IMG/VR virus record: IMGVR_UViG_3300034684_000299
Location: 32,001 to 96,000 of that record
Reading direction: 5' to 3' (one strand)
DNA: 64,000 nucleotides
DNA from: a virus
Positions 3,039-53,306 of this stretch are shown here, one piece after another (position 1 is the first letter of the stretch; every line of letters begins with the position of its first letter). The translations under genes were made by a program, and so were the position numbers. The notes below the pieces were generated by a model. That model saw nothing but the letters and a program-made list of their open reading frames with translations. It made no database searches and was not told where the DNA came from.

Positions 3039-3092
3039 TATTAGGGGAAAGGAGGGCAAAGCGCATATTTAATAATGCGCTAATTTAAAAAA

Positions 3093-4901
3093 ATGAACAA
3101 ACTAACAGTACAATTACCGTTATTAAAGGACCAATGGGCAGCAACATTACTACAAGCTTTATACAATCAGCATCCATATTTGATTGTAGATTCTGCAAAA
3201 GTTAATATCAATGATTACGCCTTAGACGATGGCGTTATAGGTATAATCTATGTTACTATGCAAAATCATAGATTTGGTATACCTTGTATCATACGTAATG
3301 GTGAGGCGTATCCATTCGATATACTTCTTTTGCCAAATGGTAATGTTGAATTGTTGAATAAAAACAACTACGAAAAACTTATCGCTGAGATATATCAAAT
3401 AGCAACTCCAGCACCTAAACTGGATACTATTGCTGATCTATTCACACCTAAGACTTCTGGACATTTACCAATAGACCAAGTGATGACTTTAGACGAATTG
3501 ACTAAACAATCTTCATATAGAACATTAGTATTCAGTGAATATGACCCAGAAGAGTTTATAAAAACAGCAAAAGAGGTATTCAACGTTTTACCAGATGCCA
3601 TTAAAAAGTTTGCAAAAGATTTGAATTTAAGATACTCTAAAAAGGATGAAGATTATACAGACGATATTACTGAGTTTGAAATTTTGGAAAAAACTGCTGG
3701 ATACCAGTTCATATTCTATAACTTGAACAAGAAAGTCAAAGAATACGTGAAAGGTAAAGGTGGATTAGAAAAGATAGCTGAAAACTTTGATATAAATGAT
3801 GAAGAGTTAGAACTTCTACAAAGAACTAAGTATGCTAAATTCAAAAAGAACGCTACTGATTTCTATATCGACCATGAAATAACTGAAAAACCCAAAATAA
3901 CGATTATAAAGATGGCAGGAGATAAAGAAGTCAGAGACAATGTTGATTTTCTCATAAAACCATCTGAACCTAAAGTTGGTACTAGAATGGTATTTTTTGA
4001 GAAAGGTGCCAACGACGAATTATATTTCACTGAACCTATTTATATCACTAAAGTCGAAAAAGATAAATTAGAAGGATATTCTTCAGAAGGATTTGTGAAG
4101 TTAAAAGAAACAGACAAAAACTTTATAAAAAATGCTGCTGTTCCTGAAAGCAAAACATATCTTTTATCAACTAATGCTTTACCTTTTGAGGCAGTTGACA
4201 AAAAACAATACGATGTTAGCAACAAATATCAGCAATTGTTAAAGACCGCATCCTACAATAAATTAAAAATACATAAAGCACCTTCTGCTTATATAGTAGA
4301 TGATAGTAAAATCCTTAAAAATTTAAACGATGTTGATGTTTATCTTATGAAAGAAGCAGGATTTGATGCCAGAGACACTTTGTATATAAATCAACATTTA
4401 GAATCACTTCCACCTTCTAATAGCATTGTTATAAATTACAAACACAATGACCATGAAAAAATTGCAGAGCATAATGACAACACAATTGAAATGTCTAAGG
4501 AAGATAAAAAAGCTTTAATAAAATTTGCAACTTACTATTTGCAAGCGACTGAACAAGGATTATTAAAAATTGCTCAAACTCCAAAAGAAACAAAATCTCA
4601 AGAACAAGTAATGACTAGCCGTGAATTACTCGATTATGCATTAAGACAAGATCCAGACGAAGCGATAGCATACAATTTATTAGAATTAACAGCCAGCAAA
4701 AAATTGAATATATCAGAGCTTATAATGCAATATCAATTATTAGAGAATTCCAAAAATGTATTGATCAAATTACTACTTCAAGCAGAAGTTGGACTCTTAC
4801 CAATAAAGTTTGATATTGTACGCAATGCTTTAATAGCTTTAGAAAATTTATTATTAAGCATTGAATATCTTGTTAATCAGAATCAAACCACGGAAAAATA
4901 A
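3093..4901 (+). CDS. Putative inner-head/virion protein with about 12 K-x-A motifs
   Basis: FIKTAK, LEKTAG, LEKIAE, IIKMAG, FIKNAA, LLKTAS, LMKEAG, LIKFAT, LLKIAQ and others; hairpin-split RBS. Confidence 0.45.
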   Translation: MNKLTVQLPLLKDQWAATLLQALYNQHPYLIVDSAKVNINDYALDDGVIGIIYVTMQNHRFGIPCIIRNGEAYPFDILLLPNGNVELLNKNNYEKLIAEIYQIATPAPKLDTIADLFTPKTSGHLPIDQVMTLDELTKQSSYRTLVFSEYDPEEFIKTAKEVFNVLPDAIKKFAKDLNLRYSKKDEDYTDDITEFEILEKTAGYQFIFYNLNKKVKEYVKGKGGLEKIAENFDINDEELELLQRTKYAKFKKNATDFYIDHEITEKPKITIIKMAGDKEVRDNVDFLIKPSEPKVGTRMVFFEKGANDELYFTEPIYITKVEKDKLEGYSSEGFVKLKETDKNFIKNAAVPESKTYLLSTNALPFEAVDKKQYDVSNKYQQLLKTASYNKLKIHKAPSAYIVDDSKILKNLNDVDVYLMKEAGFDARDTLYINQHLESLPPSNSIVINYKHNDHEKIAEHNDNTIEMSKEDKKALIKFATYYLQATEQGLLKIAQTPKETKSQEQVMTSRELLDYALRQDPDEAIAYNLLELTASKKLNISELIMQYQLLENSKNVLIKLLLQAEVGLLPIKFDIVRNALIALENLLLSIEYLVNQNQTTEK

Positions 4902-4907
4902 GGGGCG

Positions 4908-5687
4908 ATGCTAATGTTACCATACAACAGATTTTTGATAGCTTTAAAAAGTCTGGGATATAACTACAGGGAAATTCAATCAATATTGAATTCATATAAA
5001 TTACCCAACATGACAGAAGAGCATTATATAGGTATAAATGCCAACGATATTGATGATTGGGTATTAAAATTAATTGATGGATGGAAAGATAAAGATAAAT
5101 ATAAGACGGTATTCTATAAGATGTTAAACAATGCGATGATGAGATATAAACTTATGGCATTGTTAACCGCTAATCCTAATACAGAAGAATTAGCTAAAAC
5201 GATGAAACAAAATGGATTAGAAGAAATAGATGAAGAATCATTGGAATTATTCAAAAAATGGTTTTGGGACATTGATGAGACTAAAGAAAAAGATTGGGAT
5301 TATTTTTTTGAACACAACAGGTTCCCTGGGCAAGTATTGGAAAAGATACAAAATGCATTATACGGAGACAAGATGTTGACATATTATGAAAATGGAATAT
5401 TCCCGGAACCTGACCCAAATGCTTTTTTAAATGGAATTGTTGCGGTAGCATACCAAAAATTAAGAGATATGTTAGCAGACCCTGTCAAACGTAACAGGGT
5501 TAATTATAATACGGCTGTAAAACATGCTATGAAAGCTTTAGAAGTTTTAACCGCTAGAGAAAAGACAGGGACGTCAGAGGTTGATCCTGCTGATATAATA
5601 AATATCTTAGAAAAAAAATTGAAATTTAAAAATATGAAAGATTTTAAAAATATTAATGATTTGCAAGAGAAGGATGAGAAAAAATGA
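4908..5687 (+). CDS. Hypothetical protein translationally coupled to the RNA polymerase gene (start may be ATG 4914)
   Basis: ORF track; ATGA overlap with the RNAP start. Confidence 0.6.
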   Translation: MLMLPYNRFLIALKSLGYNYREIQSILNSYKLPNMTEEHYIGINANDIDDWVLKLIDGWKDKDKYKTVFYKMLNNAMMRYKLMALLTANPNTEELAKTMKQNGLEEIDEESLELFKKWFWDIDETKEKDWDYFFEHNRFPGQVLEKIQNALYGDKMLTYYENGIFPEPDPNAFLNGIVAVAYQKLRDMLADPVKRNRVNYNTAVKHAMKALEVLTAREKTGTSEVDPADIINILEKKLKFKNMKDFKNINDLQEKDEKK

Positions 5688-8600
5688 TTCTAACCGGATA
5701 TGCTGAAAAAACGAATGAAGAGTTTAAAAGTGCCATAGAAAGAAAAATAAAAGAAATGTTTCCCATACAAGCTGGAGACAGAGAAATTGTACTTGAAAAA
5801 TTAACAGTCACTGAACCAAAAGAAGCCTATGATGCCGCTGCTTTTGAACAGAAAAAGCTTAATCTTTCATCTATTTCTTTTGATGTCAGTATGAATTTAA
5901 AATTGAGGAACACAAAAACCAACGAAACTATAGATTCTAAAGTTATAAAATTAAAGATTCCTGCTGCTACTATTAAGAACGATTTTTTGGTCAAAGGTAA
6001 CGAGTATGTAATACCAACACAATTGCGATTGAAACCGGGAATATACACTAGGCGAAAATCAAATGGCGAATTAGTTGCTGAATTTAAAATGGAAAAGGGT
6101 GAAAACTTTAAAATAGTTCTCGACCCTAATAAAAACGCGTTGAGAATTGATCAACAGGGCAGACAAATTAAATTGATACCTTTCTTAAAAGGAATGGGCA
6201 TAACAGAAGAACAAATGCGTAAAGCATGGGGAAATGAGGAGTTCAATGTTCTGAATCAAGTTGATGGTCAAGGTGATCCCCAAAAAGAAGTTCAAAAAGT
6301 AATGGAAAAGGACTTTTCTAATAGATACAGATGGTTATGGGAAGATATAGACCCTAATCTTCCACCAAATGAAAAAGTCAAAAAATACATGGAGAAAACA
6401 GAGTTAGATAGTAAAATAACGAATATCACACTTGGGCAAGAAATAAGTAAAGCAGATGTCAACGCTATTTTAGCTGCCGCCGCTAAATTAATTCAAATTT
6501 CTAAAGGTGAAGCAAAAGAATCAGGTATGAGTTCTATAGTTTACAAAAAAGCTCATAAACCATACCATCATATCGAAGAAAAATTAGACGATATGAAAAA
6601 TGTTTTGAACAGTACTGTGAAAAAAAGAATGTTGCAATTCGATGATTTACATAAAATAATCTCCCCTAGTTATACACAAAAGATATTTGATAATTTTTTT
6701 CTTACCTCTTCGGCTTCACAGTTAGCAGACCAGCCTAATGTGATTGGACTTTTATCTAACATGGGAAAAGTTACTCTAACAGGAGAGGGAGCTATTGAAG
6801 AAGATAGAGCTGTAACTGAAGCGGATAGAAGTGTAGACCCTTACCATTTTCTTTTTTTAGACCCTGTACATACACCTGAATCTGAAAAAATTGGTTCTAA
6901 CCTCTTTGCTACAATAGGTTCTCTTGGCTCGATTACAAACGATACGAGTCAGGAATTAAAAAGTGTTTTTTATAATTTAAAAACAGGGCAAAATGTAACA
7001 TTAGCTCCTATCGATGTGTATGATAAAGTTGTTGCTTTTCCAAATGAAATCGAAGGTAAAAAACCAACAGGCAAAACGGTAAAAGCACTTCATAAAGGTG
7101 AAATAAAAAATGTCAAAGATACAGAAGTTGATTTAATCCCTTTAAACGCATCTGAAATGTTTGATTTTTCTTCAAATTTAATACCATTCTTATCTTCAAT
7201 AAATGGAAATAGAGCTATGATGGCTTCAAAACATCTAACTCATGCTATTCCTTTAGTAGACCCAGAACCACCTTTAGTTCAAAATATTGTACCAAATACA
7301 TCTAGAACCTTTGAGAATACAGTAGGTTCTGCTGTAAGTATGTTTTCTCCTGTGGATGGTACGGTTGTTTCTGTTTCCGATAAAAATATAAAAATTAAAG
7401 ATAATAAAGGAAAAATTTACAATGTATCTTTATTGGATTATATTGAAACAGGTGAAAGTACCTTTTTGAAACATATTCCTGTTGTCAAAAAGGATGATAA
7501 AGTTAAAAAAGGACAATTAATAGCAGATTCCAACATGTCCAAAGGTGGTACCTTAGCAATCGGTAAAAATTTAAAGGTTGCTTATGCTCCATACAAAGGA
7601 TTTAACTATGAAGATGGCATAGTAATTTCTGATACAGCTGCTAAAAAATTAGCTTCTGAACATTTATATAATTTTAAAATAGAAATTCTTCCTGGCATGG
7701 TATTTGATAAAAACAAATTCCGTTCTTATTTTCCTAATGAATATACAACACAGCAGTTAAACAATCTAGATGATACAGGTATAGTAAAAAAAGGAACAAA
7801 ATTGAAATATGGAGACCCAGTAGCAGTTTTATTGAAAGAGCGTTCTCAATCAATCCACGAAAAATTAATAGGTGATTTGCATAAACAATTGATGTCTCCG
7901 ATGATAAATGCTTCTGTTGAATGGGACAAAAACGCAGAAGGAGAAGTAGTAAGAGTTGTTAAATCTTCTTCATTAATACAGGTTATGGTAAGAACAGTCG
8001 AACCCATTGTTGCTGGAGATAAAATAGTTGGAAGACACGGTAATAAAGGTACCGTGGCACAAATAGTACCTGAAAAAGATATGCCTGTTGATGAAAGTGG
8101 AGAACCTATAGAAGTAATATTGAACCCTGCTGGTATACCATCGAGAATCAATCCTTCACAAGTTTTAGAAACGGTAGCAGGTAAAATAGCTAAAAAAACG
8201 GGTACACAATATAATATAGAAAATTTCAAACCAAATACGAATTATTTGGAACAATTAAAAACTGATTTGAAAAAATATAATTTAAAAGATACAGAGTATT
8301 TAACTGATCCAAATCTTGGTAAATTAGAAAAACCTGTATTGACAGGATATCAATATATGGTAAAACTTCCCCAACAAGTTGAAGTTAAAACTAATATAAG
8401 AGAAGAATGGGGATACGATGCAGATAAAAGGCCTCTAAGAGGTAGTCAAGAAGGTGGAGGATCAAGGGCATTGGACCCTCTTACCGCTTATTCTTTAATA
8501 GCTCACGACGCAAGAGCTAATATGAGAGAAATGGCTACGTATAAAGCGGAGCAAAATGATGAATTCTGGTTGGCAATAGAAAACGGACAAATTCCACCTG

Positions 8601-11600
8601 CTCCTAAACCCACATTTGCTTTCAATAAGTTTGTTGGTTATTTGAAAGGGGCTGGAATTGATGTAACAAAATCTGGCAATAATTTACAATTAGCCCCTAT
8701 GAAAGATAAAGACATCTTGTCTATGTCCAATGGAGAAGTCAAAAAACCAGATACGTTGAAAGCATACAATTTAACACCTGAAAAAGGTGGAATTTTTGAT
8801 GTTGACGTATTAGGCGGATTACAAGGAGATAAATGGGGACACATAAATTTGGTAAGTAGTATACCAAACCCAACTTTTGAAAGGCAAATCAAAAAAATAC
8901 TTGACTTGTCTTCTAGAGAATATGAACAATTGCTTAAAGGGGAAAAAGGCGTAGATAATAATGGAAATATTGTTGATAAAAATCAGGCCACTTATTTTGC
9001 CGGTGATGCTTTTAAAAAATTATTGTCTAAAATTAATCCAGATCAGGAATTAAGAAAAATACAAGAAACATTAAAGCAAAACGATAATTTACGACCAGAA
9101 GAAATAGATTCTTTAATGTACAAAGCTAAAATCTTTAGAGGTATGAAAGAAACTGGGACCAAACCTGAAGATTATGTAATTAGTCATATACCAGTTATAC
9201 CACCTAAATATAGACCGGTGTACCCTTCACAAGACGATAAGTTTCTTGTAGTTTCACCAATTAATCATTTGTATAAAGATACATTATTACTGAATAATCA
9301 AATAAAAGATGCTGAACAAAGTAAAACATTAACTAAAGAAGAAGAATTAAAATTAGTAGGTGATTTATATAATCAAGTAAAAGCTTTAGTCGGAATTGGT
9401 TCACCTCTCCCTGGCACTCAATCTTCAAAAGAAGGTGCCTCTGGAGCTTTAGAATTTTTAGCTGGAACTCAAAGCCCTAAAAGTGGATATTTTCAATCCA
9501 GACTATTCAGTAAAAGGCAAGAATTGTCTTCGACAGCCGTTATACAGAATGGACCTGATTTAAATTTAGATGAAGCAGCTATTCCCGAAGAGGCTCTTTG
9601 GAATTTGTATAGACCTTTTTTGATAAAGAAACTTCAAGAGAATGGATACAACATCAAAGAAGCTAAAGAAATGATAAAAAATAAAGACCCAATGGCAAGA
9701 AAAATGTTAGAAGAAGAGATTGAAAGTAGACCTGTTTTGTTAAACAGAAGTCCTTCATTACATAAATTTTCCGTTATGGCATTTAAACCTAAAATTACAC
9801 AAGATCAAGTAATAAGATTAAATCCTAATGTTGTAGCAGGCTTTAATGCTGACTACGATGGCGACAGTATTTTTTCCTCTGTTTATGCGGCTTTTTTCAA
9901 CGACGACCAAGATACTCAAAATTATAAATTATTAGGAGAAAACGATATGCCATTTGAAGAATTATCCTTAAGAACAACGTTTGGACTAATTAATTTAAAG
10001 GATTTTCCTAGAATTGAAAAAAGCAAAAGGGTAGAAGGCAACAAAGAAATTTATAAAGTTCCTAAAAATGTAAGGATTTTGGCTTCAAAAGATGGAAAAA
10101 CTGGATATTATCCAATTGAAAGTTTCAGTATACATAAAAATCTAGAAATGGTAGAAGTTAAAACCAACACGTCAAGAACCATTCATTGTTCTAAAGACCA
10201 TTCCCTAGTAACGGTGGATGAAAATCTCAACTATATCAATCATGTTCCAGAAAAATATCTAACTATTCCTAGATTGAGGAAACCTGTTGATACTTACACT
10301 GCCGAACATATTGTTCTTGAAGATAAAGGAGAAAGTAATTATAATTTTAATTTTAAAATTCCTTTAGACGAAAAATGGGGTTATGTTAATGGCGTGTATA
10401 TAGGTGATGGTTGGGTAGATCATATCCAAAGTAAATATAGCATGAATTTAGCCAATGTATCTGAAGAATTATTTAAAGAAATCCAAAATATTTTTAATAG
10501 TTATATTAATGATGAAAACAAGATACATTTTTACATCAAAAATAATCCACATGATTTCGATGGATTTAAAAGTTTTTCAAGAAAAATAACATGGCATTCA
10601 AAAACTTTTCACAATTATTTTAGTTCTTTAGGACATAGAGCTCAAAACAAACATTTGCCAGAATATTGGCTTATTGCTCCTGAAAATTTTAAATGGGGTT
10701 TGTTGGCTGGTTTAATAGATACTGACGGGACAATAAGTTATAATCAGACAGAAAACGGCATTCAGAGAATGTGTATAAATTATTACACAACTTCCAGAAC
10801 TTTAGCTTATGAAATAGCTGCATTAGCTGCAAGTTTAAATTTAACAGCTTCAGTATCTCCAACATTCACACCCAAAGGAGAAGAAGCTTGGACAATTATA
10901 TTTAGTCAAGAATCAATTGTAGATATACAAAATAAATTAAATTTACGTGTTGTTGATAAAAAAGAAAAATTGCAAAAGTATATTCCTAACAAAAATTTTG
11001 CACGTAATAAATATACTCCTAAATTAAGCAAATCTAGACTAAATGAATTGAGAAAAGCAATAGGATCTCCTAGATTAAGGAATAGAAAAGGTGAGTTAAT
11101 AACGGAAGATCCTATTGAACAGTCTAAAATAAAACACAAAAAAAGTTTGAATGTAATCTGTACAAGAGTATCCAATAACAATACTGCTTTAACCAAACAA
11201 ACAGCTTTAAAAATTTTTGATTTGAATTTAGATATATTTGAAAAAGATCCTTTCTGGAAAAAATGGAAAGAGATGGTATTAGATGAAAATATTGAATGGG
11301 AATTAATTACAGATATAAAACCTATACCAGAGATAACTGAAGCTTATGATTTAACAGCAGGACCTTTGTATACTATGATTACAGAAAATGGGTTTATTGT
11401 TCAAGATACAATGGCCATCCATGTTCCAGTAACTGAAGAGGCCAGACAAGAAGCTTTACGTATGACACCTTCAAAAAACCTATTCAGACCTGGAAGTAAA
11501 ACTCTTATGAATACATTGAGATTAGAATACAATGGAGGTATTTATAATTTAACAGCCCCTCCTGAAAATGATAACGTACTTCCTATTCAAGTAGGAGATT

Positions 11601-13519: not shown

Positions 13520-13562
13520 AGTTTCAAGAAAGGAGGAAAAGTGTTTCGACACTTATAATAAT

Positions 13563-14195
13563 ATGATAAAAAAAGAATTTGTAAAAACAGCAAAATCACA
13601 TGGTGCTTTAATGGGAGGAGCCGCTGATATAATGGCTGGTATGCCTCTTCAAATTGGTTCAATAAAATCCCAACAAAAGACTCAGCAAAAACTTACAGAT
13701 TTAAATACAATTTACCAAATAACAACGGGTAGTGATTTGGTAGAGGATTTAAGTAAGTATCAGAAACCACGAGGTGGAGGAATATTGCGTTCCATTGGTT
13801 TAATAGGTGGAACATTAGCAGGTGCTGCTCTTGGAGGTAAAGTTGGAGGTACAATAGCTACAAAATTTATGAAAGATGTTCCAGCTAAAAAAATAACTAG
13901 TAAGTTAATAGGTGCTGAAACTACTAAACAGTTTGGTGAAATAGCAGGTAGTTCTATAGGATCTAATGTAGCTAGTTTTACAGATACAGCCATCGATAAA
14001 AGAAGTATCAATAGAGCAAAACGAAATTTAGAAAGAGATACAAATATAGACCCTGTAAAAAAGGATTTACTAAATAAAGCGTTGGACTTGCAAAGAGAAT
14101 CAGCAAAAAAATACGATGTCGTAGATACTATAGATTTATTCTCCTCACCTATTATTCAAAATACTACTTTCAAACTAAGAAGTCGTTTTAAATAA
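13563..14195 (+). CDS. Putative ejection/virion protein with glycine-zipper hydrophobic segments (start moved from 13500)
   Basis: SD AGGAGG 13531-13536 plus hairpin before ATG 13563; N-terminal FVKTAK; GLIGGTLAGAALGGKVGG. Confidence 0.45.
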   Translation: MIKKEFVKTAKSHGALMGGAADIMAGMPLQIGSIKSQQKTQQKLTDLNTIYQITTGSDLVEDLSKYQKPRGGGILRSIGLIGGTLAGAALGGKVGGTIATKFMKDVPAKKITSKLIGAETTKQFGEIAGSSIGSNVASFTDTAIDKRSINRAKRNLERDTNIDPVKKDLLNKALDLQRESAKKYDVVDTIDLFSSPIIQNTTFKLRSRFK

Positions 14196-15966: not shown

Positions 15967-15980
15967 AAGGAGGGCTTTTT

Positions 15981-36355: not shown

Positions 36356-38350
36356 TTATCTGGTTCTAACTTTAAGAGTTATAATTCCACCTTTCATAGG
36401 TAATTCTGGGAAGTAATTAATTGTTAAATTAATATACTTTGGATTTTCCGGGTCTGCTCCATATTCACTTACTGTAACATCGTTTCCTATTAACCCCATA
36501 TTAGCATGTTCTTTCAACCTTGCATTCACTATATCAACTATCAACCTTATAGAACTCATTGTAAGTTGTTGCGTATTTTTAAGTTTGTTTTGTACTACAT
36601 TGTTTATATCTTTAGCCGACCAATCAACAGAACTTACAACTGAATGTTCACTACCTTTAGAATCCAACGTATCAGTAGTAACTTGATCGACTAATGTTGG
36701 AGCCCCTTCTACACCTTGCTCTAATACCATTAACCCTGCAGAAGAAAGAGTTTCTATTTGTAATTCATTAAAATAAAGTCTATTATCTAATGGATAATAA
36801 ATACCAATAATTTCAGGCAAAGATTGATACGTTAACTGATAATGAGGTGTAGATTCATTCATGTACTTTGTAGTTAACGCCATAACAGCACATGCACCAT
36901 AAATCCCAGGAACTGGATAATTTATTCCTTTATAATTAACTTTCAAAACTGGGTTGAATATTATATCTATTCTTTTTTCATTTATACTATCCATCTTTGA
37001 TATAATATCTTCAACAATAGCTTGTTTATCGTTTAGAGCAAAGTTGGTCGACGCATCATTGAACCCGTTGAAACCTAATGCAAATTTGACATAATCCAAT
37101 TTGCTTTCTCTTTCTTTGATATAAGCATTTATTTGAGGAAGTATTGAAAATCCTGATAAAACAGTATATGCGTATACTCCTCGTTCTCCCATATAATTTA
37201 GTTTATCTTGTATATCAACCATATCGTTAAGGTCAAATATAGAATCAAAATCGTTAGAACTAGAAGTTGACGCTATAGCATAAACGCCTTGACCGGAACC
37301 AGAAATATGTAAATAACAACCGTACGCAATTGGATTCAATGGATGTATAACGCCAAATTTAGTTTCAATATCTCCTATATTTTGTATATATTGTAAAGAA
37401 GAATAAATTGGATTATCTATGTTATATTCAACAGTTAATGTTTTATCCGTCATGTCGTATGTTGGATTTATATAAATTAATCCTTTCATTGGATCTACCC
37501 AATATTCCGGGTCCACAAAACCTGAATCAGAAAAATCTCTATCTTGTAAAAAATCTGGATAATAAACAAATTCTTCTTCCATTGGTGTTGCTGGCGTGGT
37601 TGAAGTATCCAACCAAGTTGCTTTTACTGTTAAATAAGATGTTGGATTGGTTTCAGAAAATTTTATAGGGTTGTCTCTCAACTCGAAAACAGTTTGATTT
37701 AAACTCATCGTTTGTGTAACCAAAGAGAAAGATTGTGAAGCACCTAAAGTTACTTTTTTCTGAGCCTTGTATTCTACAAGAATTGCAAAGCTTGAATTAG
37801 AATTACCTGTTCCATCTATTAGTATTGGTCTTGTTTCACCAGCCATGTTCACTGGAACTGGTGGTGTTCCTGCACCATCAACTAAAAATTTTGGAATAAC
37901 TATTTTATCAGCTGTTATACCACTTGGCACTGTATTACCAAAATCATCCATCCATTCATTTTCTTTAACTACCTTAGTTATATCTACATAAGATACATCT
38001 ATTTCAGGAACTTTCATAGGAGGAAATCCTCTGAAATATTCCCTTGAAAAATTTCTTATTCCTATATCAAAAGATACCGACCCTGGAATGAGATATACTT
38101 TGACAGAATTTAAATCCACTACATCGTATAATTCGTTTCTTTTTGGATAGCTAACAATAAAATTATCAACTTCTCCTGTCTTATACGTTATCCTTTGCCC
38201 CAATGAATCTACAACAAGGGCATCTTGTCCTTCTATTACAATGTTACTGGCACCAATTATTCCAGCTGGAAATCTTGGTATTTGTGTAGTTAATTGAGGT
38301 TCCAAAATATATTCTTGTTTGACTTTAAAGCCTGGTTTTCTGTATGCCAT
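36356..38350 (-). CDS. Tail sheath protein (start moved from 38380)
   Basis: MAYRKPG N-terminus; C-terminal DQVTTD...EHSVVSSVD and YFPELPMKGG sheath pattern; precedes tube genes. Confidence 0.8.
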   Translation of the reverse strand: MAYRKPGFKVKQEYILEPQLTTQIPRFPAGIIGASNIVIEGQDALVVDSLGQRITYKTGEVDNFIVSYPKRNELYDVVDLNSVKVYLIPGSVSFDIGIRNFSREYFRGFPPMKVPEIDVSYVDITKVVKENEWMDDFGNTVPSGITADKIVIPKFLVDGAGTPPVPVNMAGETRPILIDGTGNSNSSFAILVEYKAQKKVTLGASQSFSLVTQTMSLNQTVFELRDNPIKFSETNPTSYLTVKATWLDTSTTPATPMEEEFVYYPDFLQDRDFSDSGFVDPEYWVDPMKGLIYINPTYDMTDKTLTVEYNIDNPIYSSLQYIQNIGDIETKFGVIHPLNPIAYGCYLHISGSGQGVYAIASTSSSNDFDSIFDLNDMVDIQDKLNYMGERGVYAYTVLSGFSILPQINAYIKERESKLDYVKFALGFNGFNDASTNFALNDKQAIVEDIISKMDSINEKRIDIIFNPVLKVNYKGINYPVPGIYGACAVMALTTKYMNESTPHYQLTYQSLPEIIGIYYPLDNRLYFNELQIETLSSAGLMVLEQGVEGAPTLVDQVTTDTLDSKGSEHSVVSSVDWSAKDINNVVQNKLKNTQQLTMSSIRLIVDIVNARLKEHANMGLIGNDVTVSEYGADPENPKYINLTINYFPELPMKGGIITLKVRTR

Positions 38351-38445
38351 TTTATTTACCGTTATTTTATAACGGCTCACCCCTCCTTCTTAAACTTTTC
38401 TTTCATTTAATTTTATCATCTTTGATTTTGATACTTAGTAAAATA

Positions 38446-40242: not shown

Positions 40243-40270
40243 AATGAAAAAAGCCCCTTTTTATGAAACT

Positions 40271-40930: not shown

Positions 40931-40964
40931 AATTACGTCTCCTTATTGAGTTTACTAGGAGATA

Positions 40965-41393
40965 CTATTTATCTTGAGTTTTACCAAAAAAAGCATCTAA
41001 CTTTTCAATTATTTCTTTCTTAGTATCGCTTGAATTAATATCCACTCCATGTTTTTCAGCTAATGCAACTAAATCTGCTTTAGTCATATTATCTGAATAT
41101 TCAACCTGTTCAGATGGAGCTTTTTCTAAATTTTCTTCTCTTTCCTTTACCACTTCTGCTGGTTCCTCAATTGGTACAGGTGATTTTTCAGGAGCTACGA
41201 CGTCCTTAACTTCTTTCACTTCTTGATATTTGATATATCCTAAATTTTGTAATACTCTTAAATCATATAATGCTCTTTCTTCATTATCTTCTTCAACTAC
41301 ATAATCCACTTCTTTGCCAGCCGGAATAGCTTGAAATCTATACAATATTCTCACTGGAAATTTAGATACATTTTTTACTTTGAATGTTTTCAT
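40965..41393 (-). CDS. Protein with C-terminal HeH/LEM (Rho-N-like) domain
   Basis: MTKADLVALAEKHGVDINSSDTKKEIIEKL; hairpin-split RBS. Confidence 0.6.
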   Translation of the reverse strand: MKTFKVKNVSKFPVRILYRFQAIPAGKEVDYVVEEDNEERALYDLRVLQNLGYIKYQEVKEVKDVVAPEKSPVPIEEPAEVVKEREENLEKAPSEQVEYSDNMTKADLVALAEKHGVDINSSDTKKEIIEKLDAFFGKTQDK

Positions 41394-41447
41394 GTTATTT
41401 TGATGCCATAATTAAAATAGCATCATTCCCTCCTTTCTTGTAATATG

Positions 41448-41798: not shown

Positions 41799-41827
41799 TT
41801 TTTCCAGTACCTCCTTAACTTTTTTTG

Positions 41828-41880
41828 AAAAATGAAAGGGGATAGCCCTTTTTGTTTTTTTACAAATATTTCTATCCCCC
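41828..41880 (-). terminator. Long hairpin/terminator downstream of the major capsid gene
   Basis: ggggatag/ctatcccc inverted repeat (41838-41879) with inner tttgt/acaaa, followed by TTTCATTTTT. Confidence 0.5.
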
Positions 41881-41897
41881 TATTACCCATCAAAAAA

Positions 41898-42848: not shown

Positions 42849-42874
42849 GAAGTACACCTCCCATTATTTTTTGA

Positions 42875-43372: not shown

Positions 43373-43398
43373 TAAATTTCACCTCACCTTATTTTCTA

Positions 43399-44196
43399 TT
43401 AATTTATTGTTCTATATTCCAATAATTTATTCACCAATTCCACATATATATCTTCGGAAGTTCTTTGCCCATTTTCAGAAGTAGCTACTTTTCTATACGG
43501 TTCCGCTACATTCAATTCTTCATTCAAAATTTTAGAATTCCAATACTCTGATTCTTTTTCCAATTCTTCATCATTTTTTGCCTTCAAATCTTCTACTTCT
43601 TTGATAATATCTTTAACCTCATAACCTTCAAAATTCGCTTTTTTCTCTAAAATATCCGTTATTATTCTTTCACGTTCTTCTTCTGAATACATAGCCTTCT
43701 TTTGGATATTTTTTTCTTGTTTCTTACTTGAAATTTCAGATTTATTACTATTGTCTTGCTTTATGGATTCTACAGGTTGAGCAAAACTTTGTTCTATATC
43801 TCCAAGTAAAGATTGTAAATATGCATCAAATTCATCTACTGGTTGTGTAGTTGAAGCTGCAGCTACTTTAAATTCTCCTTGTGGCGCATAATTTTGATTT
43901 AACGGTACATTCTGTCCTGATAAAACAATATCTTGATAACGATTTTCTCTTGCTTGTTGATCCATAAGTTCCAACTGCATCTTAGCTAATTCTTCTTGAT
44001 TTTTTTGAAGTTCCTTTTGCCTCTTTAAATTGTTTAATGCCGTATATGCTAGTATTCCAGTAGAAACTGCTCCAGCTGCTCCTGAAGCTACCTGTGCAGC
44101 TCTAACTGCAGCATTTGTTACCTCTTTTACTTTAGTTTTTGCAGCTGTTTTTATTAAGTTATCTTTTATTAATATATATCCTACAGTCCCGTTCAT
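43399..44196 (-). CDS. Scaffold-like head protein with a hydrophobic N-terminal segment
   Basis: Coiled/acidic composition, five K-x-A motifs, AAQVASGAAGAVSTGILAY. Confidence 0.45.
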   Translation of the reverse strand: MNGTVGYILIKDNLIKTAAKTKVKEVTNAAVRAAQVASGAAGAVSTGILAYTALNNLKRQKELQKNQEELAKMQLELMDQQARENRYQDIVLSGQNVPLNQNYAPQGEFKVAAASTTQPVDEFDAYLQSLLGDIEQSFAQPVESIKQDNSNKSEISSKKQEKNIQKKAMYSEEERERIITDILEKKANFEGYEVKDIIKEVEDLKAKNDEELEKESEYWNSKILNEELNVAEPYRKVATSENGQRTSEDIYVELVNKLLEYRTIN

Positions 44197-44204
44197 TCAT
44201 TCGG

Positions 44205-44244
44205 CGCAGGAAACCCCATCCTTTAAAGGGTGGAGAGGATGCAC
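44205..44244 (+). mobile_element. IS200/IS605-type end-like palindrome (solitary remnant)
   Basis: CAGGAAACCCCATCCTTTAAAGGGTGGAGAGGATGCAC resembles the AGGAA-hairpin(CTTTA loop)-AGGATG(T)CAC right ends of IS605/IS1341 elements. Confidence 0.4.
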
Positions 44245-44284
44245 CTTCCCTCCTTTCCTGTTAAAATTGCAAAAATGACGCAAA

Positions 44285-46275: not shown

Positions 46276-46279
46276 CTCG

Positions 46280-46675
46280 TCACAAACCTTTAGCCATTAA
46301 GTTAGAATACTGCATCAACATTAGCGGATCAATTCCACCATAATTAAATGCTTTTTTAATTATCTCTTCTACCGCATATGGAGACATGTACAAATTTGGT
46401 ACAAGTTGTGCAACTGTCAACAAATATTTTCTTAATTCTTTTTTATCCCATTGAGGATATTTTTGACTCAACAATCTCTCCATCTTTAATATATCGTCAG
46501 TTGTAACTTTGATTCTAGGAGAAGCTCGACCTTTAAGATTAAGTGTACCAGTTAATCCAGTTGCAAATCTATCGGCTCCTTCATATATTTGTTCTACAAA
46601 AGAAACATATGGGAACCCGCTAGAATCAACTTGCTCAGGAGGTGAAGGCGTATTTTGATTTGTATTTTCAGGCAT
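46280..46675 (-). CDS. Hypothetical virion-module protein
   Basis: ORF track; hairpin-split RBS. Confidence 0.55.
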   Translation of the reverse strand: MPENTNQNTPSPPEQVDSSGFPYVSFVEQIYEGADRFATGLTGTLNLKGRASPRIKVTTDDILKMERLLSQKYPQWDKKELRKYLLTVAQLVPNLYMSPYAVEEIIKKAFNYGGIDPLMLMQYSNLMAKGL

Positions 46676-46732
46676 TTTTTTTAATAGATCTCAAAGGATT
46701 CAAGACCTATTGTTCTACCCTCCTTAATTGTA

Positions 46733-47233: not shown

Positions 47234-47248
47234 TTTCTTATAACCTCC

Positions 47249-48919
47249 TTATAATTCTTCTTTTTCGTAATAGTCTGGAATAAATGTTTCCGTTGATGCT
47301 CCTAATATACCTCCGATGATACTTGAAGTCGTTTTACCTTTACCAACTTTTTTCTTAACATCTTGATAAATATCTTCTTCTGTTATTTTACCACTGTTTA
47401 ATTTGTTTATAGTTCTATTACTTAACCCTGTAGTTCGTAACTCTTTTTGATATTTATTCAGTTTCGCTTGTGCCCCACCTGCAGCAATCAAGCCACCTCC
47501 TAACGCTCCTAAAGTTACATTCCTTGCTCTTGCACCTAGATACTGTTTTCTAACTTCTTTCAATCGCTGTTCTTGTTGCTCTTTAGTTATTTTCCCTTCT
47601 TCGTACATCTCGTTTATATTTCTAACTCTGTCTTTGTATGCCCTGTTTTCTTTACCGCCAGTAACAGCTGTCGAAGTCAAAGCACCAGCGGTTGCACCTT
47701 GTATTCCTACTTGCAACGGTATCTTCTTTGATTTAGCCATAAATTGATCTATAGAAAATTCTACAATTTTTTCGCCTGCTGTTGCAGCTATCTTTTCAAA
47801 GTATTTTTCATCCATTAATCCTTTGTCAACTGCGGTTTTTAACAACAATAATTTATTTTTAATTTCATCTGTAATAGATGCTACCTTCTCATAATTTTTC
47901 ACAACACTATGTACATTATATAATATGTCTTTTTGATCTTCGGTTATACTTGGCGTCTCCAACAACATCGCTATTTTTTCTTGTTGTTTTCTGACTTTTA
48001 ATTTTAATTCTGCATTTCTTATATCATTTTCTAACTTATCAGCATAATAATTAACATTTGCTATTTTAGTTAATGTTTCATATAAATTCTCTGACCCTAT
48101 ATTTTCTACTTCTTCTTCTAATGCTTTTTCATAAGCCAATTTTTTAAATCCTTCTGAAACGTTTATTCCTTCAATTATATATTTTAAATTTTCTTCGGAT
48201 ACTTCTTTTAAACTGGCCTCTTTTCTTATAAATGTTTTTTTAACTTTATCAATAAGTCTTCTAACTAAACTCTTCGCTTTCTTTTTATCTTCATATTTAA
48301 TATTTTCTTTTTCTATTTCATTCAATAAAATTTTTTCCAATTGTTCAGGAGGTATTTTCCCCATTATTTTCTTCATATTATTTTCTATTTCCATCAGTTT
48401 CATTCTCTGTTGCATATTGGTTACCCTTATTTCGTCTTCAGCTATCTTTAAAAATTCTACAGCAGAATCTACAGACTTTTTAGAAATAGAATCATAAAAA
48501 TAGTCTTTTGGTTCTTCTTTAGTAATATTCAAAGAAGCTAATTTTGTCTGTACGGGTTCTATCCATTCTTGGGATTTAGACCAATCTATATCATCCAACA
48601 ACCAATCCTCTGGATGTATACTGTTAGAAGAAACTTCGCTTTTAACTTCCTCTATTTCTATATTTTCTTGCATTTTTTTCAACCAATTTAATACATTTTC
48701 TAATCTTATTATTGGAAATTCAACCTTGTTTTGTTCAAACAATTTTAGTTGAATAAGTTGATTAGTTCTTTCTATCAAACGTTTAATTTCATTGTAATTC
48801 AAACCTCTTTCAATAGATATCTCAGCTACTATTAAATCCGGTGATTTGCTAGTATCAGCTAAATATATTTTTGCAACATTTGTAGCCAAAATATCGTTAC
48901 TCAACTTTGTCATATTCAA
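47249..48919 (-). CDS. Putative ejection protein: K-x-A-rich propeptide-like region plus glycine-zipper C-domain
   Basis: About 9 K-x-A motifs ending at FEKIAA, followed by GATAGALT, GALGGGLIAAGG, IIGGILGA. Confidence 0.45.
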   Translation of the reverse strand: MNMTKLSNDILATNVAKIYLADTSKSPDLIVAEISIERGLNYNEIKRLIERTNQLIQLKLFEQNKVEFPIIRLENVLNWLKKMQENIEIEEVKSEVSSNSIHPEDWLLDDIDWSKSQEWIEPVQTKLASLNITKEEPKDYFYDSISKKSVDSAVEFLKIAEDEIRVTNMQQRMKLMEIENNMKKIMGKIPPEQLEKILLNEIEKENIKYEDKKKAKSLVRRLIDKVKKTFIRKEASLKEVSEENLKYIIEGINVSEGFKKLAYEKALEEEVENIGSENLYETLTKIANVNYYADKLENDIRNAELKLKVRKQQEKIAMLLETPSITEDQKDILYNVHSVVKNYEKVASITDEIKNKLLLLKTAVDKGLMDEKYFEKIAATAGEKIVEFSIDQFMAKSKKIPLQVGIQGATAGALTSTAVTGGKENRAYKDRVRNINEMYEEGKITKEQQEQRLKEVRKQYLGARARNVTLGALGGGLIAAGGAQAKLNKYQKELRTTGLSNRTINKLNSGKITEEDIYQDVKKKVGKGKTTSSIIGGILGASTETFIPDYYEKEEL

Positions 48920-48997
48920 TTTTCCCAGCCTCCTCTTTTCAATTATATCATTGTCAAAATTTTCATTGGTTCAATATGAATCCCACTAGTTAACTAT

Positions 48998-50623
48998 TTA
49001 TTCCAACTCGGAATCATTCACAGGTTCTTGTGTTATTCTAGCGTCATATGGATTGATCCTTCCAGTGCCTAAAGAAGCTGCAAGATAGCAAAAATTTAAA
49101 GCATGAAATGCATCATCAGGTTTACCTTTTTCATGAGTAAAATATATTTGTCTAAGATTCTCGTTGTAATCTTGATATATATTCAAAAAATCATTTGCAA
49201 ACTCTTTCCATACTTCGTATTTTGGAAATAATATTCTTCGCTCTTTTATACGCTGCATTGTATTACTCATAGATTGTGTTCTACTTACTATATACTTGTA
49301 ACCTTCCCTATCCCATTTGATCAATATTTTTAAATTTCCATTGAGGGAGAATTCCAACACAGGGTCCATATTTGATTGTTGTTTCAATAAATCTTTCCTC
49401 AACCTAGCATTTATTCCACCAGCACCTATACCCCAATCTACACCTATTAAACTTACTCTGAACTTTTGAGCTAACTTCAATATATCCTCATGTACATAAT
49501 TCATATCAGATTCCTTACCCTTGTACTTTTTCATATACACTACTCTAAATATCCCTTTTGGATCATATCCCCCTATAACCAAAACAGTATAAGAATCCAA
49601 TTGACTGTCTTTAGATGAATACGTTGCCCAATCTATACCCATGTACAAAGGTTTGCCATAAAAAATTTCTGAATTGTATCCAGTATCCATATCTCTATTT
49701 TCAGAAGCCAATCTTAACATCTCTTCGTTCATCGGCATGTTGGCATCTTCATACGGTAATCCCAACACTTCATTGTAAAACTTACCCTTTGGATAATTAC
49801 GTCTTCTGTAATTAATATCATCCCAATCTACCGTCGGAGATAAAACCTGTGGTATTCTCATCCCAATAAAATACTTATCTGTTGGATCTGCCATATTAAC
49901 CCATTCACCGTTTCTTGTATCAAGCTCTTTATTGCATGAAGGATTACTACATATCAATCCATTTGGGCCTAAATTATCCTCATCAATAATATTCCATTTT
50001 CCACAATGCGTACATTTGATTGCATATTCTGACATAGTACTTTCTTTCCATGTATCCTCAATAGGATTTTGAAATCTCTTTGGAGTTCCTGTATAAAAAC
50101 GATATTTGTATTCTGAACCTGATAATGTTTCGGATATAACTGGAATAGTATCCGTTAATAAATCTTGTATTTCATCTAATCCAATCATATCAGCAGCTAT
50201 ACCTCTTATATGGTCAGCAGTAAGGTAAGCACTTCTTAGTATTATCTGCGACCCTGTACTAAAATCTTTTTGAAATACATTGTCAACTGAAAATTTTGGA
50301 TTCATATAATATTTTTGTATATATGGTGAATACTGTATAAAATGCTTCAATTTTTGAGACGAGAAAACTTTAACTTGATTCATAGTAGGATTGACATGTA
50401 AAATTTTAAAAAACGGTTTGGTAGTAGCATCTACTACATATTTAGCCGCCAACGTTAAAGATTTTCCAACTTGCCTTCCACATTTTGCTAAAAATCTGGG
50501 ATGTTCTAAATCAAAAAAAGGTCTAAAATAATCACGCCCTTCCAATGTAAAAGGTTTGTTGTTATATTTCAAAATTGACTCGGCAAATTCCGACCTATAC
50601 ATTTCTAAAGTTTTTTTGGACAT
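48998..50623 (-). CDS. terL: Terminase large subunit
   Basis: Walker A CGRQVGKS, Walker B IGLDEIQD, CxxC..C..C insert, RNase H-like MGIDW and PDDAFHA. Confidence 0.9.
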   Translation of the reverse strand: MSKKTLEMYRSEFAESILKYNNKPFTLEGRDYFRPFFDLEHPRFLAKCGRQVGKSLTLAAKYVVDATTKPFFKILHVNPTMNQVKVFSSQKLKHFIQYSPYIQKYYMNPKFSVDNVFQKDFSTGSQIILRSAYLTADHIRGIAADMIGLDEIQDLLTDTIPVISETLSGSEYKYRFYTGTPKRFQNPIEDTWKESTMSEYAIKCTHCGKWNIIDEDNLGPNGLICSNPSCNKELDTRNGEWVNMADPTDKYFIGMRIPQVLSPTVDWDDINYRRRNYPKGKFYNEVLGLPYEDANMPMNEEMLRLASENRDMDTGYNSEIFYGKPLYMGIDWATYSSKDSQLDSYTVLVIGGYDPKGIFRVVYMKKYKGKESDMNYVHEDILKLAQKFRVSLIGVDWGIGAGGINARLRKDLLKQQSNMDPVLEFSLNGNLKILIKWDREGYKYIVSRTQSMSNTMQRIKERRILFPKYEVWKEFANDFLNIYQDYNENLRQIYFTHEKGKPDDAFHALNFCYLAASLGTGRINPYDARITQEPVNDSELE

Positions 50624-50624
50624 C

Positions 50625-50813
50625 TTATACCCCTTTTTCTATCGCTAATTTACCGTCATCAGTAATTTTGCCTTCAGATGTAATATATCCATATTCTAAA
50701 AGTCTATTCTTGTATTTAATATGTTCTGGTAACAACATGCCGTTATTCTTTTCAAAAGCTTCTTTTAAAACCTGTACATATTCTTGACCTATGTCCCCAT
50801 GTTTTTCTAACAT
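50625..50813 (-). CDS. Small hypothetical protein
   Basis: SD AGGAGG; wHTH-like tail LLEYGYITSEGKITDDG. Confidence 0.55.
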   Translation of the reverse strand: MLEKHGDIGQEYVQVLKEAFEKNNGMLLPEHIKYKNRLLEYGYITSEGKITDDGKLAIEKGV

Positions 50814-50825
50814 AAAGAATGCCTC

Positions 50826-51215
50826 CTAGTAGACCCCTACCATTTTTCTTATACGTTTAACCAATTCCTCATCTTTTTTGTTAATAAAATCTCCTTCTAC
50901 AATGTCATATAATTCGTATTTTGACGAAAATAGATCAAAAAATCCTACTGTATACTCACTATCTTCTTCTTTTGAAAACAAATCTACTATATTCGTTCGC
51001 ATTAATATAGGTATTAAATATCCTTCATCTACTTCTATTTCACTTTGTTGCTTTGGATTCAATATTTTAAAAGATTTTTGGGTTATTTTAAAAATTATGT
51101 TTTTATGTTCTCCTTTCAATTCATAACTATCCGGTATTGAACCTACAAAATACTTTATATAATTACTGTTTGAGTTATTCTCTTCAACATTAATTGTGTA
51201 TTTCAAAGGTATCAT
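50826..51215 (-). CDS. Hypothetical protein (start may be TTG 51206)
   Basis: ORF track; SD spacing favours the TTG. Confidence 0.55.
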   Translation of the reverse strand: MIPLKYTINVEENNSNSNYIKYFVGSIPDSYELKGEHKNIIFKITQKSFKILNPKQQSEIEVDEGYLIPILMRTNIVDLFSKEEDSEYTVGFFDLFSSKYELYDIVEGDFINKKDEELVKRIRKMVGVY

Positions 51216-51226
51216 CTCCCTAAAAA

Positions 51227-52108
51227 TTATTTTTTGCCTTTTAATTTATATAAAATTTTTATCAATGAATCATAATTTAAACTTTCAACACCTTGTTCTT
51301 TTGCTAACTTCTGAATTTCATCTATCAATTCTTTATCTTCACCCAACATCTTACCTAAATCAGGCACCTTTATATTGATATGTTGTAACAACTCATTACT
51401 ATCTACATCCTTGTTTAATTGCCCTGCAACATTGAATATATTGTTTATAGAATTATCCGTACCAATACTAGTTAAACCTCCAAGTAAATTCTTTATCATA
51501 CTTGCCGTTTGATCTATACTTTGTGGATTTTCTATTAACCTGCCTATTTCTTCTTGTAATTTAGTTAGTGTTTCATCACTTCGCCCTTTCATATAGGAAT
51601 AATCAAATTCCTCCAAATGTCTTATCATAGCTTGTATAGTTGCTCTACCCCATTCATCGTTGTAAACTCTTATCTTAAAAAAATCTGGGCAATCTTTAAA
51701 TTCGCTGTATTTAATAACATATTTCAATTCACCAGTTGCATCAGTTTTAGTTTCTAACTCTTTTGTTTTATTAATATTTATGGTTACCTTTGCTTCTTTC
51801 CTTTCAGGTGCCTTTAAATACAACTGTGTATCTTGATTTTCATATACAGTCAATCTAGTCGGATACCTTTCCCAAGTTCTATAAAAAGCTCCATTTTTAA
51901 AAAATATATTATTTAATTGTGTTTCTATCTCTTTTTTAGGAGCATTAACAGCTACTACAACCGTAGCATCATCAGTTTCAGGAAAAGCGAGATTGTTAGA
52001 ATTCCATACTGAATATGGTTTTCCAGAATCTTTATTGACTAACACTAAACTATATACAGTATCAGGTTTTAATTGATCAACAGGAACTACATCGTATACT
52101 TTTATCAC
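51227..52108 (-). CDS. Hypothetical virion-module protein
   Basis: ORF track; SD GAGGAGGT. Confidence 0.6.
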   Translation of the reverse strand: MIKVYDVVPVDQLKPDTVYSLVLVNKDSGKPYSVWNSNNLAFPETDDATVVVAVNAPKKEIETQLNNIFFKNGAFYRTWERYPTRLTVYENQDTQLYLKAPERKEAKVTININKTKELETKTDATGELKYVIKYSEFKDCPDFFKIRVYNDEWGRATIQAMIRHLEEFDYSYMKGRSDETLTKLQEEIGRLIENPQSIDQTASMIKNLLGGLTSIGTDNSINNIFNVAGQLNKDVDSNELLQHINIKVPDLGKMLGEDKELIDEIQKLAKEQGVESLNYDSLIKILYKLKGKK

Positions 52109-52121
52109 AATTATTACCTCC

Positions 52122-53273
52122 TCAATTCACGGCTACAAATATCAACAAATCTACATCAACAGCTGAACTTTGTGGAAAATCATATGCATACATTTTTATA
52201 TCGTATCCATTCCAAGCTACCATAACATAATTTGGAGGTGCATTTCTTTCAGTACCTACATTTATACCTATTAATTTTTGTTGAACCAGTATGCCTAAAA
52301 TATCACCAAAAGTTCTGTTGTTTTCTAACATAGAATTGTTTAAAGATAATGAAAATTGAACGTATCTACCTCTGCTAACAGAAGCATTTATTTTTACTAC
52401 TTTTGCTAATTGATTACTTCTTATCTTCTTAGTCGTTGCATTCATTGAAGAACCTGTTTTAAATCCGTTTATGTTATGTGGATACTGTAAATTCAGATAT
52501 GCTTCAGGTCTACCTACGTCTATCGTATTAGTCGCTTCTATATCGTAAACGTCTACATATATATAATTGGATAATGGTATAGGTTCTTCAAAGGTTAAAA
52601 ATTTTGATAAAGCTTCTTCTTTTGGATAATACAAATCATCATGGTTGTGTTCTTTTGGAGAAAAAGAACTCTGGGTATATATATTGCCATTAACATCTTT
52701 TAAAGCGGTTGTATCTTCTACAATGTCATTTTTTTTGTAATAATCAGAACCATGGTTATGTTGTTTAAAAGCTAGATCTTGTACCCTTACTCCATCAATC
52801 TCTACTGCATTAGGAACTATATCATCCTTTTTGTAATATTCAGGATGTTCATGTTCTTTTCTAGCAAAGGTAGAATAATCAACCCCTGATAGTTTTTCTG
52901 TAACAGTAATTACGTCATCTTGTTTAACATAATCATGTGTATGTTCTGCAGGTGCTAAATCAGTAGGTTTATAATTATTTACACCATCCGTTATTGTGTA
53001 TGCTCCGTCTATTACTTCACCTTTTACAACATATTCTGAATGTATATGGTCTTTCATTGCAAACTCTGATAATTCTTTATTCAATATTCTATATGTATAA
53101 TTAGAATACGGCACCATATATTTAGATACCGCTGGTAATAACATTTCTGTCACTTTAAAAGAATTTGCTACATTGATCACTTCCGACACATTCAATGCTG
53201 AATCCTTTGAAGCTTGAAGAATATAATTCAATATTTTAACTTTCTGTGCTTCCTCATTTATTAATCTTTTCAT
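52122..53273 (-). CDS. Tail fibre-like protein with five H-x-H repeats
   Basis: DHIHSEY, EHTHDY, EHEHPEY, QHNHGSDY, EHNHDDLY; hairpin-split RBS. Confidence 0.6.
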   Translation of the reverse strand: MKRLINEEAQKVKILNYILQASKDSALNVSEVINVANSFKVTEMLLPAVSKYMVPYSNYTYRILNKELSEFAMKDHIHSEYVVKGEVIDGAYTITDGVNNYKPTDLAPAEHTHDYVKQDDVITVTEKLSGVDYSTFARKEHEHPEYYKKDDIVPNAVEIDGVRVQDLAFKQHNHGSDYYKKNDIVEDTTALKDVNGNIYTQSSFSPKEHNHDDLYYPKEEALSKFLTFEEPIPLSNYIYVDVYDIEATNTIDVGRPEAYLNLQYPHNINGFKTGSSMNATTKKIRSNQLAKVVKINASVSRGRYVQFSLSLNNSMLENNRTFGDILGILVQQKLIGINVGTERNAPPNYVMVAWNGYDIKMYAYDFPQSSAVDVDLLIFVAVN

Positions 53274-53306
53274 AAAATTAAGTGCCTAAGCACTTTGCCT
53301 CCTTCC

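Follow-up and report, generated by a model that had tools for sequence, protein, structure and literature searches.

Candidate split ribosome-binding sites with hairpin-filled spacers in the late operons of a tailed phage

In phage T4, hairpins cut the spacing from the Shine-Dalgarno (SD) sequence to the start codon of genes 38 and 25 from 22 to 5 nucleotides (nt) and from 27 to 11 nt, respectively, as established by mutation and probing (PMC3014915). Such T4-type sites, termed noncontiguous or split (PMC7297116), were described in studies of Gold (1988), Nivinskas (1999), and Malys and Nivinskas (2009) (reviewed in PMC3014915), and split ribosome-binding sites (RBSs) have so far been regarded as curiosities of two or three T4 genes. 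The present study concerns a 64,000-nt stretch of DNA (referred to as the window), bases 32001-96000 of IMG/VR virus record IMGVR_UViG_3300034684_000299, which is a single contig of 185,437 bp with a G+C content of 31% (phage genome G000) and is derived from a tailed phage. Seven genes in the window, and fourteen in the whole genome, have a strong (A)AGGAGG separated from the ATG by a spacer of 24-55 nt that contains a hairpin. We read these, with moderate confidence, as looped-out split RBSs of the type found in T4 genes 38 and 25.

Hairpin-filled spacers in the window and in the whole genome

The original prediction had described seven split sites in the window (named here by the position of the ATG), all of which were present as described when each was read directly. 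The stems also matched the earlier description at all seven, including 8 bp at 38350 (Table 1), and the helices at 13563 and 53273, previously taken to be one helix with a compensatory change, were one compensatory pair apart. An automatic scan of the window returned exactly seven sites, with none in the replication block (14287-30324), in agreement with the earlier claim for this region. The ATG followed the end of GGAGG at distances of 37, 26, 31, 35, 52, 43, and 24 nt for sites 3093, 13563, 38350, 41393, 44196, 46675, and 53273, respectively, and the seven spacers had minimum free energies (MFE) of -4.6 to -18.8 kcal/mol, with z scores of -2.1 to -5 against dinucleotide shuffles. The spacer of 3093 folded at -10.0 kcal/mol (z -2.1), and an in-frame stop was located 4 codons 5' of its ATG.

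Fourteen sites, the seven in the window and seven outside it, were found in a genome-wide scan for an intergenic (A)AGGAGG separated from the first ATG of a long open reading frame (ORF) by 24-55 nt that include a hairpin. When intergenic AAGGAGG sequences without a canonical start, but with the ATG of a long ORF downstream, were collected (n=16), the spacer hairpin had a z score of -2 or lower in 13. The canonical rule is tight in this genome, with AGGAGG-N7-ATG at 47 of 83 sites and N6-9 at 76 of 83, whereas the split sites have 24-55 nt. All 14 spacers folded better than dinucleotide shuffles (z -2.1 to -6.1), and their stems ranged between 4 and 14 bp. The mRNA strand was more stable than its complement in 13 of the 14 (sums of -145.7 vs -125.9 kcal/mol; at 46675, -10.4 kcal/mol for the sense and -4.0 kcal/mol for the antisense strand). 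This sense-strand bias, together with the three G.U pairs in the 46675 stem, points to a fold of RNA, not of DNA.

The unpaired remainder of the spacers came to 2-15 nt (mean of 9.6), with no dependence on spacer length (r = -0.13). Between the hairpin foot and the AUG there were 6-8 nt, the same as in normal SD-AUG spacing, in 12 of the 14 sites by a manual count of core stems and in 10 of the 14 by MFE, in which extra outer pairs shorten three sites. No SD-like 4-mer was found within 16 nt of the AUG at any of the 14 sites, the start codon was ATG at all of them, and in-frame stops in the spacers rule out an upstream start at most. Since orthologs with ordinary sites have the same N-termini (see below), the listed ATGs are, as judged from the sequence, the true starts. 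Public gene calls mis-start two of the genes: the sheath is given as 674 instead of 664 amino acids (aa), being begun at a GTG beside the SD, and the 210-aa gene is given as 231 aa, being begun at ATG 13500.

In the mechanism that we propose, the 30S subunit would pair with the strong (A)AGGAGG, and the next 15-45 nt would be looped out as a hairpin, with approximately 2-7 nt left on its 5' side and 6-8 nt on its 3' side. The AUG would thereby reach the P site despite the linear distance of 24-55 nt. We infer that initiation occurs from the folded form and that translation depends on the stem.

Several other candidates were considered in connection with these sites. Stronger SDs at split than at canonical sites did not withstand a fair comparison (8.3 vs 7.8 nt, p = 0.12). 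A terminator or attenuator reading of the set was rejected because, of the five sites scanned (36000-55800), only the 53273 hairpin was terminator-like, the others being followed by A-rich sequence. A possible 15th site, AAAAGGAGG 26 nt 5' of the ATG of a 453-aa gene (G000:C1:171828-171865, minus strand), has a GGG/CCC stem only (z -0.45) and is identical in the relative L113. A hairpin of the opposite of the bridging type, which sequesters the SD by pairing of AAAGGAGGCG with CGCCTCCT 7 nt downstream, is located just 5' of a 66-aa ORF (G000:C1:120750-120790, minus strand).

The identical scan of Staphylococcus phage K, Bacillus phage SPO1, and Listeria phage A511 (251 canonical GGAGG starts) gave 0, 2, and 3 automatic matches, respectively, and no clean case was found in these three phages, each match being internal or having a second SD at the start. 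Compared with this baseline, the 14 sites per approximately 105 canonical ones in G000 correspond to a Fisher p value of 2e-8, or 5e-5 when the automatic hits are counted. A literature search found no paper on the systematic use of an SD-hairpin-AUG architecture. A scan of IMG/VR for AAGGAGG-N4-GTGC...GCAC-N6-10-ATG was uninformative: the 64 matches were singletons, mostly on high-GC contigs, in which the GTG is probably the real start.

The enrichment in late, virion, or RNA polymerase (RNAP) operons, originally claimed for the window, holds also when the whole genome is considered (Fisher p = 3e-4 to 5e-5). Of the 14 sites, 13 belonged to minus-strand structural blocks or the RNAP operon (73 genes of at least 80 aa) and one to the 104 other genes (p = 4.7e-5); in a more conservative grouping, the numbers were 10 of 47 vs 4 of 130 genes (p = 3e-4). 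About 202 genes were called heuristically, and approximately 7% of them are affected by hairpin sites; the hairpin genes have almost no PHROG or Pfam annotation.

This enrichment is also in line with a different explanation, in which the hairpins are regulated operators, either temperature-sensitive or bound by a protein of the phage or the host, that switch late-gene translation. Eight of the hairpins have a GUG...CAC base in common, protein-operated noncontiguous translation initiation regions (TIRs) are known in thrS and rpmE (PMC7297116), and the weak stems would melt near 60-70 C. On the other hand, the loops and stems are otherwise unrelated (UUCG, GAAA, UUAG, AAA, and 8-11-nt loops) and no motif is common to the 14; because of this heterogeneity, a single operator protein is unlikely. 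Rfam gave no match at the gathering score in the window, with chance-level miRNA matches only at 44150-44300, and no candidate binding protein was found. Furthermore, relatives at 60-75% identity rely on ordinary, hairpin-free sites for expression of the same genes. We regard regulated operators as an improbable explanation. In the original interpretation, the split-RBS part stands (true ATGs, no rival SD, RNA-strand bias, and hairpins kept in close relatives), as does the late-operon enrichment, while the dedicated late-gene control layer that it also suggested (operator, thermometer, or stoichiometry tuning) has no direct support.

Table 1. Coordinates of the split sites, mobile-element features, and a host-linked contig. 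Positions are those of the window unless marked as genome (G000) positions.
Feature	Position	Strand	Details
Split RBS of 602-aa gene	3048..3095	+	SD AAAGGAGG 3048-3055; 7-bp hairpin 3060-3081; ATG 3093
Split RBS of 210-aa gene after RNAP gene	13529..13565	+	SD 13529-13536; AAGUGU-UUCG-ACACUU 13539-13554; ATG 13563; z -3.7
Split RBS of 664-aa sheath-like gene	38348..38389	-	SD 38389-38382; hairpin 38376-38358, 8 bp, AAA loop; ATG 38350; z -3.5
Split RBS of 142-aa gene	41391..41436	-	SD 41436-41429; 9-bp hairpin with one G.U 41425-41401; ATG 41393; z -5.0
Split RBS of 265-aa gene	44194..44256	-	SD 44256-44249; 43-nt two-tier fold 44245-44203; ATG 44196
Split RBS of 131-aa gene	46673..46725	-	SD 46725-46719; 13-bp hairpin with three G.U 46711-46683; ATG 46675; z -3.2
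Split RBS of 383-aa gene	53271..53304	-	SD 53304-53298; AAGUGC-UUAG-GCACUU 53295-53280; ATG 53273
Seven sites outside the window	genome +155041, -183428, -182770, -166849, -28375, -16322, -10646		GGAGG coordinates, signed by strand
Full IscB element in RBS	genome 103006 (G000:C1:102990-104670)		AAGGAGGTAA / element / ATGAAA
Full IscB element in RBS	genome 20448-18866 (G000:C1:18856-20470)		GAG / element / GTGAAAATTTAATG
TnpB-type scaffold copies	63843-63902; genome 108753, 152996, 116538(-)		each followed by a different flank
L115	NCBI GCA_029981385.1 contig		genes at least 90% identical to those of the phage; binned in a Thermoanaerobacterium sp. metagenome-assembled genome (MAG)

Relatives, age, and origin of the hairpins

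A megablast search of the window against phages found no relatives, and prophage relatives of the sheath, sought in genome contigs, were not found either. Related contigs (L numbers) were gathered via the sheath, 383-aa, 210-aa, and other proteins. The hairpin was kept at all 10 sites having a close relative, being identical in sequence at five of them, and five of the six sites that varied retained the fold. The changes that left the fold in place included a G.U to A-U change, a rebuilt stem, and loop changes; four sites were sequence-identical and hence uninformative: 3093 (L104, 91% identity), 44196 (L067/L068), -182770 (L110-112), and -28375 (L115).

Among the informative sites, the stem of the sheath gene was retained in L066 (82% identity) with a loop 3 nt larger. 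The 142-aa gene showed two loop changes and the G.U to A-U change in L067/L068, none of which is disruptive, and the 131-aa gene one loop change in L067. In the 210-aa gene, L104-106 retained the stem while the UUCG loop was replaced by GAAA. The stem of the 199-aa gene was rebuilt in a relative with unchanged gaps, and in G000 it is a perfected palindrome. At the 383-aa gene, L103 (99% identity) differed once, in the 5' linker.

More distant orthologs of six genes (sheath, 265-, 131-, 142-, 383-, and 210-aa; 58-75% identity; L001, L065, L071, L074, and L107) have SD-N7-10-ATG or overlapping junctions. The sheath has a canonical SD in L065 (70%) and L001 (58%), with the same MAY... N-terminus (MAYR/MAYK); the 265-aa gene is canonical in the same two contigs with the same MNG.V.G N-terminus, as are the 142-aa gene in L065 and L001 and the 131-aa gene in L065. 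The 210-aa gene has a canonical GGTGA-N6-ATG and the same N-terminus in L107/108 (61% identity), and the 383-aa gene an overlapping TAATG-type junction without a hairpin in L071, L074, and L001 (72-75% identity). N-termini were shared at all six genes with distant orthologs (also MI(K/R).EF). Since these orthologs have ordinary sites and the same N-termini, the hairpins are recent, lineage-specific additions, namely independent insertions or rearrangements in the G000 lineage. Hairpin sites also occur in L001, L004, and L005, although before another gene, whose counterpart at window 41798 is canonical; within the clade, the hairpin trait is gained and lost.

One source of such insertions may be mobile elements. 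The inner hairpin of the 44196 fold (44213..44235, read on the plus strand) was identical at 20 of 23 positions to nt 7-30 of the 5' end of the genome's own IscB-type omega-RNA elements (p <= 2e-4 against shuffles and 0.011 when compared with random palindromes of equal stem composition); five IscB element 5' ends in the genome begin with GTCAACTACC. Two full IscB-type elements outside the window part an SD from its ATG by approximately 1.6 kb (Table 1). In addition, an oil-field RNA-library contig departed from the reference at window 53275, and its 24 loose letters were, by manual reading, the reverse complement of the IscB 5' end; judging from this junction, an IscB element seems to be present in a sister strain inside the 53273 spacer, 2 nt upstream of the ATG of the 383-aa gene. 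The full insertions, the 44196 match, and the 53275 junction together indicate that SD-AUG spacers are landing sites for IscB elements in G000, and the 44196 hairpin is probably a remnant of an element end that landed in such a spacer. The other 13 hairpins had no likeness to element ends, and a general transposon origin of the hairpins is not shown. Because at least one hairpin resembles a transposon-end remnant, part of the pattern may reflect how spacers arose, not designed control. The IscB elements in SD-AUG spacers suggest a route from mobile-element ends to translation signals.

The hairpins might even be mainly tolerated debris, either IscB/TnpB end remnants or template-switching palindromes, kept foldable but of no benefit. 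The 44196 match, the two full elements sitting inside RBSs, the sister-strain junction at 53275, the absence of hairpins at 58-75% identity, and the perfected palindrome of the 199-aa gene are consistent with this. Nevertheless, 13 hairpins are unlike element ends, and a blastn-short search of the 14 modules against the genome gave self matches only, revealing no dispersed repeat family. A tetraloop that was swapped, a 3' gap that stays constant, and the late-operon enrichment speak for selection on function. Moreover, debris is a statement on origin and purpose, and looping-out would still be needed for translation. We give this explanation little credence. A 16-nt match of the 44196 module at genome 177916 was located inside a coding region and attributed to chance, and alignment of the two-tier folds at 44196, genome 10586, and genome 182712 could not demonstrate that the three have a common origin. 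As a separate observation, a TnpB-type right-end RNA scaffold ending in TAGTTCAC occurs in three near-identical copies and a more diverged copy at 108753 (Table 1).

Assignment of the source to a tailed phage is accompanied by the following gene content and environmental data. The genome encodes a large terminase (Pfam); the match to a major head protein was weak, and the 664-aa protein was assigned as a sheath from language-model features like those of tail sheaths (Atlas features). The phage also encodes a fused RNAP of 2611 aa (window 5684-13519), and the counterpart in L104 (L104:3667-9960) is 2097 aa, although the neighboring gene is 91% identical. Metagenomes from the subsurface and from oil fields contain the phage DNA. 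A contig in a MAG with the label Thermoanaerobacterium sp. (L115 in Table 1) encodes a protein that shares at least 90% identity with a phage protein; as a lead from the MAG label alone, Thermoanaerobacterium is a possible host. A host temperature of approximately 41 C, estimated from IVYWREL, was too crude for use.

Three further features of the genome were observed. The SD consensus varies, being AAAGGAGG followed by AA or TA in G000 and GGAGGTG in the 70%-identity relative L065, a difference that may reflect different hosts. In oil-field strains, approximately 100 nt within the 165-aa gene (window 42965-43067) are swapped for approximately 98 other letters, forming a small variable cassette. 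A two-way terminator-like hairpin (GAAAGGGGATAGCCCTTTT; window 41834-41852) is located directly 3' of the putative major head gene and marks an operon break ahead of the 116-aa gene.

Points against looping-out and the GUG subclass

A number of observations weigh against looping-out as the account of these sites. The remainder plus the width of the helix end exceeded the canonical 7 nt at several sites, and context folds predicted the SD to be partly paired at four (genome -76253, -16322, -166849, and -28375). Should the host be thermophilic, the four weakest stems would be marginal at 60 C (-1.3 to -3.0 kcal/mol). The -166849 hairpin, preceding the 276-aa gene, is weak and nearly lost in L113. 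The cover of contigs in RNA libraries indicates presence only, and is not evidence of translation or transcript ends. Finally, looping alone does not account for a GUG shared at an offset of 4-6 nt from GGAGG.

This GTG was found 4-6 nt after GGAGG at 8 of the 14 sites (P about 3e-11 against the genome 3-mer frequency), and the GUG forms the base of the 5' arm. When the GUG is read as the start of a mini-ORF, five of the eight have the stop at -7 to +1 relative to the AUG (TAATG, ATGA, or TGA-ATG). For example, the mini-ORF of 44196 has 16 codons including GUG, with a UGA stop that abuts the AUG, and that of 53273 has 8 codons including GUG and ends as AUGA. Of the remaining three, one stops 28 nt upstream of the AUG and two stop within the gene, at 49 and 94 nt.

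These properties raise the question of a leader mini-ORF route at the eight GUG sites. The SD would place the GUG, not the AUG, in the P site; 6-16 codons (including GUG) would be translated, melting the hairpin, and the ribosome would stop at or near the AUG and reinitiate there, so that the hairpin would gate access to the GUG instead of bridging a gap. In addition to the frequency of the GTG, which is well above chance, the placement of the stops argues for this route, although the product of site-specific chance values (approximately 0.015) comes from a post hoc test. In L113, the spacer has been replaced and is 3 nt shorter; the offset-4 GTG and the TAATG ending are retained while the hairpin is nearly lost. 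The offset-4 GTG persists also in L104, where the ORF ends 4 nt inside the gene (manual reading), and four of the five well-placed mini-ORFs coincide with the four weakest hairpins.

In spite of this, six sites have no such start codon. An offset of 4-5 was used by only 2 of 83 canonical starts (offsets 3-5 by 3 of 83), the GUG is paired in the stem, and three of the ORFs end at -28, +49, and +94, the latter two out of frame, such that their translation would disturb the main start. The GUG is possibly a mere stem-base motif shared by these hairpins, or it may be a relic of an extended SD, GGAGGUG, a form often seen in the relative L065. We consider the mini-ORF route unlikely, yet within the GUG subclass it is a serious rival of, or complement to, looping-out.

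A combination of the two is conceivable, in which the GUG sites have two states. In the folded state, the SD would be looped to the AUG; in the melted state, which heat or a ribosome coming from the upstream gene would bring about, the GUG mini-ORF would feed the same AUG by reinitiation. We find this combination doubtful. If true, it would represent a fail-safe or temperature-compensated initiation device in the phage of a probable thermophile, built repeatedly and recently, and partly from transposon-end hairpins dropped into SD-AUG spacers.

Comparison with known systems

Under the split-RBS reading, the 14 sites and their matched hairpin-free orthologs form a natural test set for how a helix that separates the SD from the P site is accommodated by the 30S subunit, and for the costs or benefits of such a helix. 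STAB-SD mRNA stabilizers of Bacillus also have a strong SD, far upstream and without a start codon directly after it, and the gene has its own SD. The phage sites are alike in the strong SD without a start codon directly after it, but differ in having no second SD near the AUG.

The five GUG mini-ORFs that end on or beside the main AUG resemble the junctions of termination-reinitiation coupling (ATGA or TAATG overlaps). They differ from the usual form of this coupling in that the start is a paired GUG at a shorter-than-normal spacing, and six sites lack a mini-ORF. In the noncontiguous TIRs of E. coli thrS and rpmE (PMC7297116), a structured element is likewise tolerated or required in the ribosome-binding region; however, these elements are autoregulatory operators bound by the product of their own gene, whereas the phage hairpins are unrelated to one another and precede unrelated genes.

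The closest likeness is to T4 genes 38 and 25. Both systems have a distant SD and a stable hairpin wholly inside the spacer (the effective distance in T4 is 5-11 nt), both occur at intercistronic junctions of late genes, and both are limited to close relatives. On the other hand, the phage has fourteen sites in one genome, not two or three, with a full Firmicute-type AAGGAGG as the SD, spacers of up to 55 nt, and a GUG at 8 of the 14, and its sites are known from sequence alone. In terms of mechanism, the feature belongs to a known kind; its novelty lies in its scale and recent origin, in the GUG subclass, and in the connection with IscB ends.

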